Origin: Candidatus Caldarchaeales archaeon
GTDB lineage: Archaea; Thermoproteota; Nitrososphaeria_A; Caldarchaeales; Calditenuaceae
Length of the DNA stretch: 64,000 nucleotides
Direction: 5' to 3'
Assembly: GCA_039630085.1 (NCBI GenBank)
Contig: JBCNVM010000005.1
Span: 14,122-78,121, forward strand
Shown in pieces: positions 53,334 to 56,109 of the stretch (within the stretch, counting starts at the first letter, position 1; each line of letters starts with the position of its first letter). Position numbers and translations under genes: made by a program. The notes beneath the pieces were generated by a model, which searched no databases, was not told the origin of the DNA, and worked only from the letters and a program-made list of their open reading frames with translations.

Positions 53334-54643
53334 GTCCCGCGGTCCCGAGGGAGCTGAGGAGGCGGGTCGAGGCTCTGAGGAGATTGAGGGAGTCGGGGCG
53401 AGTCCGCGTCCCAGAGGACCCGCTCGAGTTCGCGGTCGGGTTCCTCTCTTGGAGGCCCTTCCCCTATCAGGCCGACCTCCTCACGGACGCGAGCCCGAGG
53501 ATCTGCGTCTGTGCCGCGAGGCAGGTGGGGAAGTCGACGACTGCGGCCGCGAAGGTCCTCCACCTCTGCCTGACCAAGCCGGGCTCGAGGGCGCTGGTGG
53601 TCGCGCCGACGTTGAGGCAGAGCGCGCTCTTCCTCGAGAGGGTCGAGGATCACCTGAGGTCCTCCAGGGCAGGGCCCTCGCTGGTCGCGGGACGGGACAG
53701 GACCTCGGTCAGGTTCGTCAACGGCAGCAGGGTCGTCGCGCTTCCCTCGGGGAGGTTCGGCCACACGATAAGGGGCTTCACCGCGGACCTCGTCGTTGTC
53801 GACGAAGCGGCCTTCGTCCCGGAGGAGGTGATAACGCAGGCCTTGATGCCTCAGGTCGCGACGACCGGCGGGAGCTTCCTGATGATCAGCACGCCCTGGG
53901 ACAAGAACCACGTCTTCTACAGGTGCTTCACCAGCGGCGACTGGAGCGTGAAGAGGTGGCCCGTGAGCGTCTGCCCCCTGATCCCCAGCGGGTTCATCGA
54001 GGAGCAGAGGAGGTTGATCGGCGACGAGGCGTTCAGGAGGGAGTACCTCGCGGAGTTCGTCGAGGACGCCGCGTCTTTCTTCTCGGCGGACCTGATCAGG
54101 AGGTGCGTGGACGACTACGAGGCCCGGCCCAGCGGCGACACTGAGCTGACCGCGGGCTTCGACTGGGGAGGCAGGTCGGACCCAAACGCGCTGGTCGTCG
54201 TCGAGCGGAGGGCCGAAGTCCTCAGGGTTGTCCACGTCGAGTCCTGGATGAGCGACAGCTACACCTACTCGGCCTCGAGGGTCGCGAGGCTCCAGAGGGA
54301 GATGGGGTTCAGGGTCGTGCTGGAGGAGATCGGCGCGGGTCTCCTGATCAGGGAGCAGCTGGAGTCCCACGGAGTCGAGGTGATCGGAGTGGGTCCAGCG
54401 GATATCGAGAGGACGATGCTGCTGCTGAGGGTCCTGATGGAGTCGGGGAGGCTGAGGACGTACCTCGACAACAGGCTGATCGACTCGCTGCGGGCTGTCA
54501 AGCACGAGAGGACGAAGGGAGGAAGGGTGAGGTTCTACCACGAGCCGGGGACCCACGACGACCTCGCCAGGGCGCTCGCGCTGGCCGCGTGGGGAGCGAC
54601 AGTCTCGGGCTCCGGAGCGACCGCCTCGCTCTTGGAGGCATGA
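53330..54643 (+). CDS. terL: phage terminase large subunit-like protein (ATPase + RNase-H-like nuclease)
   Basis: Terminase ATPase motifs: Q-motif FPYQADLL, Walker A CAARQVGKST, VVAPTLRQS, Walker B LVVVDEAAFV, C-motif LMISTPWD. Nuclease-domain acidic residues: GFDWGGRSD, EEIGAG, HDDLARALALA. Confidence 0.75.
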   Translation: MSPAVPRELRRRVEALRRLRESGRVRVPEDPLEFAVGFLSWRPFPYQADLLTDASPRICVCAARQVGKSTTAAAKVLHLCLTKPGSRALVVAPTLRQSALFLERVEDHLRSSRAGPSLVAGRDRTSVRFVNGSRVVALPSGRFGHTIRGFTADLVVVDEAAFVPEEVITQALMPQVATTGGSFLMISTPWDKNHVFYRCFTSGDWSVKRWPVSVCPLIPSGFIEEQRRLIGDEAFRREYLAEFVEDAASFFSADLIRRCVDDYEARPSGDTELTAGFDWGGRSDPNALVVVERRAEVLRVVHVESWMSDSYTYSASRVARLQREMGFRVVLEEIGAGLLIREQLESHGVEVIGVGPADIERTMLLLRVLMESGRLRTYLDNRLIDSLRAVKHERTKGGRVRFYHEPGTHDDLARALALAAWGATVSGSGATASLLEA

Positions 54644-56109
54644 AGTTCCAGGTCAGGGATCCGGTTGAGCTGGAGCAGAGGCCGAGGAGGGCATTTAGGC
54701 TCTCGAAGTCCTTCGAGACTTCCGCGCCGCGGACCAGGCGCGTGCTAGACGTTCACGACGCCTTCGGGATCGGGCTGGACGGAAGGAGGCGGGTGATCTA
54801 CAGGGACCTAGTCGTAGACGTGGACCCGGGGGACGTCGTCTTCGTGACCGGCGAGAGCGGCGGAGGCAAGTCCCTGATCCTGAGGGACCTCGCGGAAAAG
54901 CTTCGGGACGTCGAGGCCTTCAGGCCGGTCGTCGACCTGAAGGAGATCGAGGCGAAGCCTAGGGAGCTCGTGATCGAGGGCGTAGGGAGGGACACGAAGG
55001 AGGCGATCGGGCTGCTCTCTTCAGTGGGGCTCGGCGAGGCCTTCGTCTTCCTGAGGAGGTTCAGGGAGCTGAGCGACGGCCAGAAGTTCCGTTACCTGCT
55101 CGCGAAGGCCCTCGACAGGAGGCCGAGGACCTTGGTTGCGGACGAGTTCTGCTCGAACCTCGACCGGACTACCGCGAAGGTCATCGCGTATCTGGTCCAG
55201 AGGAGGGCACGGGCCGAAGGGACGACGCTCGTCCTCGCGACGGCCCACGACGACCTGATCGAGGACCTAGGTCCCGACGTGCTGGTGAGGAAGAGGTTCG
55301 GGTCCGCGGCCGAGGTCCTGTACGACCTTCCGCGCCCCGGGGCGTGCTCCCTGATGAGGGGGCTTGAGGTGTCCCGGGGGACGCTGAGGGACTACGAGGA
55401 GCTCGCGGAGTTCCACTACAGGGGCGGGAGGCCCGCGTACGTCGAGGCGGTCTTCGCGGCCAGGATCGGCGGCGAGCTGGCGGGCGTGATCGTCTATACG
55501 TCGGTCTACCCGGACCTGAAGGCGAGGAACGCGGCGCTCCCCTTCCTCAGGGACCTCAGGAGGAGGCTGGGGAGGGAGGGGTACGTCCGCTGGCTGAACG
55601 AGCACTTCACTAGGATCTCGAGGGTTGTGGTCCACCCGAAGTTCAGGGGAATAGGCTTGGGAGCGGAGCTGGTGAGGAGGACGATGCCGCTGACCGGAAA
55701 GGCCTACGTCGAGACGCTGGCGGTGATGGCGAGGTACAACCCGTTCTTCGAGAGGGCCGGGATGAAGAGGGTCGAGGTCGACCGGGACTTGCCGAGGGGC
55801 GTGAAGGCCGCGCTGGAGCTACTGGAGGGGCTGGGGGCCGACGACTTCGTTCTCAGGGACCGAAAGCTGTTCGTCGGGTGGTATAGTTCACTGAGGCCCG
55901 GAGAGAGGAGGGAGGTCAGGGAGGCCCTCAGGAGGGCGGTGGCCGGCTTCTTCCCGGTCCGGTCGCTCGACGCGCGGGAGGTCGCGGGGAGGCTGGCGAG
56001 GGCCCTCTCGCCGCCGGAGTACCTGATCTGGAGGAACCCGGAGATCGGCGCCGGGCTCCCGGAACCGATTAGCCCTCGGCCTTCTTCTCCTCGGGGACGA
56101 GCTTCTTGA
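54640..56109 (+). CDS. fusion protein: soluble ABC-type ATPase domain + C-terminal GNAT N-acetyltransferase domain
   Basis: ABC motifs: Walker A TGESGGGKSL, signature LSDGQKFRYLLAKAL, Walker B TLVADEF, D-loop SNLD, H-loop ATAHDD. GNAT motif A: VVVHPKFRGIGLGAELV. The ATG at 54640 overlaps the terL stop (ATGA). Confidence 0.7.
   Translation: MKFQVRDPVELEQRPRRAFRLSKSFETSAPRTRRVLDVHDAFGIGLDGRRRVIYRDLVVDVDPGDVVFVTGESGGGKSLILRDLAEKLRDVEAFRPVVDLKEIEAKPRELVIEGVGRDTKEAIGLLSSVGLGEAFVFLRRFRELSDGQKFRYLLAKALDRRPRTLVADEFCSNLDRTTAKVIAYLVQRRARAEGTTLVLATAHDDLIEDLGPDVLVRKRFGSAAEVLYDLPRPGACSLMRGLEVSRGTLRDYEELAEFHYRGGRPAYVEAVFAARIGGELAGVIVYTSVYPDLKARNAALPFLRDLRRRLGREGYVRWLNEHFTRISRVVVHPKFRGIGLGAELVRRTMPLTGKAYVETLAVMARYNPFFERAGMKRVEVDRDLPRGVKAALELLEGLGADDFVLRDRKLFVGWYSSLRPGERREVREALRRAVAGFFPVRSLDAREVAGRLARALSPPEYLIWRNPEIGAGLPEPISPRPSSPRGRAS

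Follow-up and report, generated by a model that had tools for sequence, protein, structure and literature searches.

The sole analogue of an NTPase-driven GNAT enzyme is TmcA/NAT10, an ATP-dependent RNA cytidine N4-acetyltransferase in which an NTPase motor and a GNAT domain share one chain and acetyl-CoA is the donor. Here we describe a protein that joins two well-understood catalytic modules, a soluble ATP-binding cassette (ABC) ATPase and a GNAT acyltransferase, in a pairing of which no characterised example exists; it is encoded at 54640–56109 (+) in a 64,000-nucleotide stretch of Candidatus Caldarchaeales DNA (‘the window’) immediately downstream of the gene for a large terminase (TerL). 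This protein, called ABC-GNAT below, is an intact member of a family whose gene neighbours terminase in hundreds of archaeal viruses and whose role is still uncharacterised; in the window it sits in a vertically inherited provirus remnant. TmcA/NAT10 is the best precedent for a GNAT that needs an ATPase, and the likeness lies in the joining of the two activities. The TmcA ATPase, however, is a helicase-type P-loop domain whereas that of ABC-GNAT is an ABC cassette, and TmcA has DUF1726 and tRNA-binding domains that ABC-GNAT lacks. None of the TmcA models (DUF1726, helicase, GNAT_acetyltr_2, tRNA-binding) matched ABC-GNAT.

Two further comparisons concern DNA. Known DNA-modification proteins linked to ParB_N domains include phage ParB-methyltransferase fusions, DndB and DpdB. 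The ABC-GNAT family resembles them in that ParB_N is repeatedly fused or adjacent to it and, in one locus (L005), a methyltransferase lies nearby, whereas the window copy has no ParB partner. For a virus GNAT acting on double-stranded DNA (dsDNA) there is a precedent in Mom of phage Mu, which has the GNAT fold and modifies adenine in dsDNA, with Gly-tRNA in place of acyl-CoA (PMC13219725). An HTH-like insertion is essential for the activity of Mom. Mom was not recovered by a profile search.

The remaining comparisons are with immunity. Like ABC-GNAT, the ABC ATPases of several defence systems (Gabija GajA, Septu PtuA, PARIS AriA, Lamassu LmuB and the OLD family) are soluble, work with no partner in the membrane and have an effector domain fused or next to them. 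They are of the SMC/Rad50/OLD type and work with nucleases, whereas ABC-GNAT pairs a compact transporter-type domain with a GNAT; genomic setting of the defence proteins aside, that of ABC-GNAT is virus morphogenesis. PADLOC models for Gabija, Septu, PARIS, Lamassu and OLD-type systems gave no match to ABC-GNAT. Across PADLOC-DB v2 there were only partial matches, of mad3 (3e-11, aa 102–217) and of mad8 (1e-6, on the P-loop), and no system-like set among ten neighbours. The GNAT toxins TacT, AtaT and ItaT share the GNAT fold and the acetyl-CoA motif A with our protein. They are stand-alone proteins of 160–180 aa whose genes follow an overlapping ribbon-helix-helix (RHH)/DUF1778 antitoxin gene, whereas the GNAT here is embedded in 489 aa downstream of TerL, with the only RHH gene ~4 kb off; it is thus not a small GNAT directly after an RHH/DUF1778 gene. 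An earlier note on this DNA, made from the letters alone, had held that the fusion fits neither the defence ATPases nor the GNAT toxins, and these comparisons agree. The same note had raised an anti-virus system and a co-conserved RHH partner. The first is not supported, as PADLOC showed no system in a context of virus morphogenesis, and RHH is no tight partner, its gene (50467–50655) lying on the far side of the island. The finding reveals no new defence system, and the family itself is already catalogued.

The ABC-GNAT protein and its family

Translation of the plus-strand frame gives an uninterrupted 489-aa product, 100% identical to an annotated 489-aa protein (P0001) of a Candidatus Caldarchaeales metagenome-assembled genome (MAG). 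At the junction with the upstream gene (GGAGGCATGAAG) the ATG of ABC-GNAT (54640–54642) overlaps the TGA of TerL (54641–54643), and this 4-nt overlap is kept in the related loci L006–L008, L094 and L095. Starting at the GTG at 54589 would give a longer product; the ATG start is favoured because P0001 is annotated at 489 aa, and annotated orthologues likewise begin at ATG.

The protein has three parts: a soluble ABC nucleotide-binding domain at ~aa 17–228 (54688–55323, +), a GNAT acyl-CoA N-acyltransferase domain at ~aa 237–380 (55348–55779, +) and, judging from the secondary structure of models, a C-terminal helical domain at ~aa 386–465 (55795–56034, +) that ends in a strand carrying Y461 and W464. 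Both expected folds, ABC nucleotide-binding and GNAT, were found. Pfam ABC_tran matched aa 55–170 at 35.8 bits (cut-off 25) and Acetyltransf_1 matched aa 264–347 at 25.3 bits (cut-off 20.7). Sequence searches of solved structures recovered no full-length relative; what matched was confined to ABC nucleotide-binding domains and GNAT motif A, and the PDB profile matches align exactly on that motif.

Motif conservation was read from an alignment of 30 ABC-GNAT relatives with 38–66% identity. Invariant or nearly so among them are Walker A (G71, S73, G74, G76, K77), the ABC signature LSDGQ (residues 144–148), Walker B (D168, E169), the D-loop (L174, D175) and the H-loop (H203), and in the second half GNAT motif A (P333, K334, R336, G339, G341) and the block ETLAVMARYNPFFExAGM (358–375). 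Motif A reads R336-G-I-G339-L-G341, of the canonical CoA type, and E358 is the conserved acidic residue of the GNAT. From the archaeal fusions through to the split phage proteins described below, H259, Y260, R296, N320, R328 and R336 are invariant. A conserved family-specific motif, R34..AFGxGxD (aa 41–47), precedes the ABC domain, and in the closing strand of the helical domain Y461 is invariant and W464 nearly so. The alignment has no conserved Gln between Walker A and the signature, where a Q-loop would lie, and the mere ~66 aa between these two motifs leave room for a short helical subdomain only. The ABC domain is a trimmed nucleotide-binding domain that has all the elements of an ATP-sandwich dimer, and both catalytic modules are intact.

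These data sharpen several points of the earlier note. It had credited the N-terminal half with every ABC motif: Walker A, signature, Walker B, D-loop and H-loop are indeed present, but a conserved Q-loop Gln is not. The GNAT motif A that it read from the letters was recovered above cut-off by Acetyltransf_1 with R336, G339 and G341 conserved. Of the ~200 C-terminal residues that it gave to the GNAT, those up to ~aa 380 belong there and the rest form the helical domain. The overlap of the ATG with the terminase stop, taken as a sign of translational coupling, is real and recurs in relatives.

A word-indexed protein search with ABC-GNAT returned 640 matches. JGI gives several of them the name ‘ABC-type ATPase with predicted acetyltransferase domain’, and these match with E-values of 1e-92 to 1e-137 over 91–98% of the query, collinear through the ABC, GNAT and C-terminal domains. 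Full-length homologues share 38–82% identity over 90–100% of the query and agree with it in domain order and in invariant motifs. The homologue in phage Cyrano is labelled ‘MK0520 protein, ABC-type ATPase fused to a predicted ...’, and we take this MK0520-type ABC-ATPase-acetyltransferase family to be COG2401. PHROGs 293, 886 and 11143 match ABC-GNAT and between them cover both halves; the GNAT half alone matched 1353 clusters at 50% identity, 778 of them with E ≤ 1e-10. By sequence, ABC-GNAT is an ordinary member of a catalogued family, with nothing that sets the protein apart, and the idea that such a fusion is unprecedented does not survive the JGI and MK0520 names and the PHROGs.

The literature is sparser. 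In the papers searched we found no functional characterisation of the family and none that discusses its association with terminase or ParB; the family is absent from a paper on Bathyarchaeia viruses and from others on the mobile elements and dark matter of archaea. Nor did we find described in the papers searched the conserved link to terminase and ParB in viruses of archaea and of bacteria, the fusion to DNA-related proteins or the vertically inherited remnant under purifying selection that are set out below.

Viral neighbourhoods and DNA-related partners

Relatives of ABC-GNAT were found by a scan in 293 IMG/VR viral contigs, and at least 441 archaeal species genomes (one genome per species) carry one, mostly those of Bathyarchaeia, Nitrososphaeria and Caldarchaeales. 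Synteny was counted in 80 IMG/VR viral loci (L013–L092) and, separately, in 80 species-genome loci that were kept; clustering of open reading frames (ORFs) took in the window, the 80 viral loci and other loci collected. Genes recur in an order that runs from connector-like F11, then F10 and F9, through the tail tube F6 (Phage_tube_2), F7, HK97-gp10-like F5, a short membrane/tape-measure-like F2 and YQBQ-like (baseplate-like) F1 to F4, F8, F12/14, TerL and ABC-GNAT. TerL lies directly upstream of ABC-GNAT in ~49 of the 80 viral loci, with overlapping longest-ORF starts counted in, and in 42 of the 80 species-genome loci, i.e. in ~55–60% of sampled loci, and the -4 overlap recurs. It is directly downstream in five of the viral loci; leaving aside five with an inverted TerL block, which are taken up below, TerL was not seen within the available flank of the rest. 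The family is thus carried by head-tailed viruses and proviruses of Thermoproteota. The alternative in the earlier note that the gene is virus-encoded is borne out by a TerL coupling that recurs in hundreds of viral and proviral loci; as for co-conservation, TerL is the usual neighbour of ABC-GNAT but the converse fails, as given below.

The 3′ side of the gene behaves differently from its 5′ side. Among the 80 viral contigs, 23 end inside ABC-GNAT or within 100 bp past its 3′ end, while none ends within 2 kb upstream of it. The conserved block seems to stop at ABC-GNAT with a variable region beyond, which may break assemblies.

Bacteriophages have counterparts as well. A tblastn search of ABC-GNAT against 50,697 phage records matched 105, among them SSU5-like phage-plasmids (of Salmonella, Klebsiella and Escherichia), Pseudomonas nickie-like and Rhizobium RHEph10-like phages, Stenotrophomonas phages, and phages of Gordonia/Rhodococcus, Arthrobacter and Porphyromonas. 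An ABC gene and a GNAT/C-terminal gene encode the protein in two pieces in the larger phages (SSU5-, nickie- and RHEph10-like); SSU5 gp129, for example, aligns to aa 233–477 of ABC-GNAT (E 6e-20), C-terminal helical domain included. In these three groups the split genes lie just upstream of the terminase genes. The order in SSU5, hairong and RHph_N1_10 is helicase (opposite strand), ParB, ParB, ABC, small ORF, GNAT half, small ORF, TerS-like, TerL, portal and capsid, with the TerS-like gene and TerL of SSU5 at the opposite end of the linear record. Phage Jace has a ParB-like gene followed by a fused ABC-GNAT (Acetyltransf_1, 1e-8). In Rhizobium phage RHph_N1_10 (L174) a DUF2829 gene (7681–7983) stands between the ABC and GNAT halves; DUF2829 is presumably the fold of the Thoeris inhibitor Tad2, and its position hints that anti-defence genes insert in the ABC/GNAT module. 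The bacteriophage order of ParB, ABC-GNAT and terminase is mirrored in three Nitrososphaeria proviruses (L113, L114 and L124), where ABC-GNAT is followed by a separate ParB-like gene and TerL.

Fusions within the family lead to similar partners. Long N-terminal extensions occur in 25 of the 261 family members collected, and 18 of these extensions are ParB_N-like; the methyltransferase mentioned above, an N6/N4 DNA methyltransferase, is encoded two genes downstream of the ParB fusion in L005. Two members (P0222, 1260 aa; P0160, 791 aa) have a family-B DNA polymerase (PolB) fused N-terminally, P0124 (665 aa) has a C-terminal TFIIB repeat, and P0128 carries a ~117-aa extension without an assigned family. 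The identified fusion and adjacency partners, ParB_N, PolB and TFIIB, are all DNA-binding or DNA-processing. Four proteins of 878–908 aa (P0126, P0132, P0136 and P0155) have a ~420-aa N-terminal extension with the P-loop GAWGKGKT, which by eye looks like a P-loop plus PD-(D/E)xK region in the layout of a terminase ATPase and nuclease. We rejected these 880–910-aa forms as single-chain TerL-ABC-GNAT fusions because their N-terminal 420 aa fail the TerL profile. The 847-aa P0180 contains an intein (Hint plus LAGLIDADG) within the ABC domain; inteins are mostly met in conserved replication or packaging enzymes.

An inherited remnant and its possible function

The upstream gene (53330–54643, +) encodes 437 aa matched by Terminase_6N (2.2e-15), Terminase_6C (4.4e-8) and phrog_2 (4e-44), in line with the TerL identity given to it in the earlier note. 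Its ATPase and nuclease residues (R64, G67, K68, E159, T188, P189, D278, D284, H404, D410) are intact, and the product is a true, catalytically intact large terminase. It also matched NAT10_TcmA_helicase weakly (1e-6), which we attribute to P-loop resemblance only; a TmcA-like split enzyme was rejected, since both terminase domains and the nuclease residues are present. On the opposite strand, 52955–54556 (-) holds a 533-aa ORF antisense to TerL, an artefact of high G+C content (65.6% in the window). No other ORF there is as long, and TerL would be missed by longest-ORF gene calling.

TerL and ABC-GNAT belong to a ~6-kb provirus remnant made up of an RHH gene, five small genes, an F4-family gene, a gene for a 104-aa protein, TerL and ABC-GNAT. 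No portal, capsid or tail homologues and no other virus-like genes were found in the 64-kb window, and around the island there were no att-like or terminal repeats and no integrase; of the parts of a functional Caudoviricetes provirus, TerL is intact and portal, HK97 capsid, tail, integrase and att are lacking. The closest ABC-GNAT relatives are in Calditenuaceae MAGs, and the island occupies the equivalent locus beside OTCase in L006–L008 and L093–L097. Synonymous divergence (dS) from L093 is 0.38 for TerL and 0.42 for ABC-GNAT, against 0.36 for OTCase and 0.34 for ASD; from L006 it is 1.06, 1.34 and 1.22 for TerL, ABC-GNAT and OTCase, respectively. Since the island genes are so close in dS to flanking host genes, the island must have been inherited vertically, and ratios of nonsynonymous to synonymous divergence (dN/dS) of 0.11–0.42 for TerL and 0.20–0.39 for ABC-GNAT against orthologues indicate that it is kept functional under purifying selection. 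It is an old virus remnant that has travelled with the Calditenuaceae chromosome, and the TerL and ABC-GNAT pair is a candidate case of virus-gene domestication in Caldarchaeales. In these archaea, Krupovic et al. reported a relic with TerS and TerL only, and tailed proviruses that are possibly domesticated (PMC6563490); their paper, which does not mention ABC-GNAT, sets a precedent for the relic described here.

What might the fusion do? The account that we put first, tentatively and at a little less than an even chance, is that the intact family member in this remnant is an ATP-gated acyltransferase that acts on viral DNA or DNA-bound proteins around packaging. Two ABC domains would close around ATP, with Walker A of one protomer facing the LSDGQ of the other, and this closure would gate or position the GNAT domains. 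Late in infection, around the time of packaging, the GNAT would then acylate either a base of viral DNA or a protein bound to that DNA, with acyl-CoA as the donor, and the ParB_N modules that are fused or adjacent in other lineages would act as DNA loaders. ABC-GNAT would be an accessory factor in packaging-stage DNA handling, outside the core terminase motor. The NTP-gated acetyltransferase of the earlier note is a reasonable candidate mechanism, and a DNA-associated role at packaging seems the most likely one for the protein. In a more specific form, which we hold improbable, the enzyme would acylate DNA itself in an ATP-dependent manner: with help from ParB, an ABC clamp would close on viral DNA and let the GNAT place an acyl mark on a base (for example N4-acetylcytosine or N6-acyladenine) shortly before or during packaging by the terminase, with the domesticated pair in Calditenuaceae serving as a chromosomal DNA-processing or anti-virus module. 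If true, tailed viruses of archaea and of bacteria would share a DNA hypermodification of a new class.

Several observations weigh against a packaging-stage role on DNA. When viral loci were seeded on TerL of the type found here (with a narrow TerL alignment as the seed), only 2 of 80 carried ABC-GNAT, so the packaging link is not obligatory; ABC-GNAT is an accessory of a subset of viruses and not a part of the packaging motor. In five of the 80 viral loci the TerL block is inverted and ~8 kb away, with ABC-GNAT still after the tail genes, and the position of the gene at the end of a conserved block beside variable DNA is also typical of accessory and anti-defence genes. The comparison with Mom is loose: Mom lacks an ATPase and draws on Gly-tRNA while the ABC-GNAT family keeps the canonical acetyl-CoA motif A, and the similarity of the GNAT to Mom is at fold level only (10–12% identity), with many ordinary GNATs within one Z unit. 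There is no ParB-like gene in the window, and such a role does not account for the retention of TerL and ABC-GNAT in a host chromosome without capsid genes.

The main rival, which we consider unlikely on balance, is an enzyme of host takeover or anti-defence. The GNAT would acetylate a host protein (a defence nuclease, an Alba-like chromatin protein or the translation apparatus), the ABC domain would be an ATP-driven recognition module, and proximity to TerL would reflect late-operon expression or a permissive site. Proteins are the usual substrates of GNATs, TerL works without ABC-GNAT in most viruses, and both the border position of the gene between conserved structural genes and variable DNA and the DUF2829 gene between the halves in Rhizobium phages, if its fold is that of Tad2, agree with such a role. 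However, a DNA target is favoured over a cytosolic host target because of the recurrent fusion or adjacency of ParB_N, PolB and TFIIB, the terminase-side synteny spans archaeal viruses and three bacteriophage lineages, and purifying selection acts on the gene in a host chromosome that holds no virus to profit from it. A further rival is a role in defence or superinfection exclusion, in which the ABC domain senses an invader and releases a toxic TacT/AtaT-like GNAT, possibly with the TerL-like nuclease, the pair having been domesticated for this in Calditenuaceae. The intact island with dN/dS of 0.1–0.4 in a chromosome without capsid genes, the RHH regulator within it and the use of soluble ABC ATPases to drive several defence systems all fit. 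Yet PADLOC gave only the weak partial matches (mad3 on ~115 aa of the ABC core, and mad8), the ABC domain is transporter-type without coiled-coil or OLD/SMC features, in most loci the gene belongs to a complete virus morphogenesis block, no antitoxin-like gene overlaps it, with the RHH gene ~4 kb off, and the protein is three times the size of a TacT-type toxin. We rate defence as improbable for the family, though it could apply to the domesticated copy. An ordinary ABC transporter ATPase subunit with a regulatory C-terminal domain can be discounted for all practical purposes. By sequence and by structure, the N-terminal half is matched best by transporter nucleotide-binding domains (such as DevA, FtsE, LolD and ABCB1), and many database records name relatives ‘ABC transporter’. 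Against this, the protein has no transmembrane domain, as the earlier note had said, no permease or binding-protein gene adjoins it here or in relatives, NCBIfam transporter models all stay far under their cut-offs, the Q-loop Gln is not conserved, the helical subdomain is a short one, conserved motif A and E358 give the C-terminal half the look of a catalytic GNAT, and the gene lies in a viral context.

Returning to a packaging-stage acyltransferase, a step at which DNA is modified, or DNA-bound proteins are stripped or marked, would be new in tailed-virus biology. The culturable phages SSU5, nickie, RHEph10 and Jace carry testable candidates.

Other genes of the island and its flanks

Directly upstream of TerL, in the position of a small terminase, lies a gene for a 104-aa protein (53019–53333, +) that is conserved in L093, L006 and L007 with dN/dS of 0.15–0.55 and had no Pfam or PHROG match. 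It is preceded by a gene for a 114-aa conserved virus protein (52678–53022, +), likewise without a Pfam or PHROG match, that ORF clustering placed in family F4; this family is present in 57 of 93 loci (window included), typically just ahead of the TerL block, and the gene has dN/dS of 0.09–0.37. The AT-rich intergenic region at 52555–52677 separates the F4–TerL operon from a divergent minus-strand operon, is conserved for the most part with L093 and in part with L006, and probably holds the promoters or operators of the island. The minus-strand operon (50908–52554) consists of five small overlapping genes (203, 96, 68, 78 and 108 aa) with orthologues at the same positions in L006, L007 and L093. 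Its 108-aa product (52228–52554) matched Phage_Mu_Gp36, a head-tail connector, at 1.8e-4, under the Pfam cut-off. The RHH regulator (50467–50655, +; RHH_1, 1e-6) forms the left edge of the island, and RHH genes were called at the equivalent place in L006 and L007.

The left flank is the host OTCase gene (49421–50350, -). To the right, 56619–58489 encodes a 294-aa uncharacterised protein and a 326-aa metallo-beta-lactamase/beta-CASP-like protein, both conserved in L093 and L006; we do not count them as members of the island, since L007 and L008 lack both. Beyond these two non-core genes follows host ASD (58535–59674, -) and then a full-length SMC of 1150 aa (59745–63197, +), a protein of host chromosome maintenance unrelated to the island.

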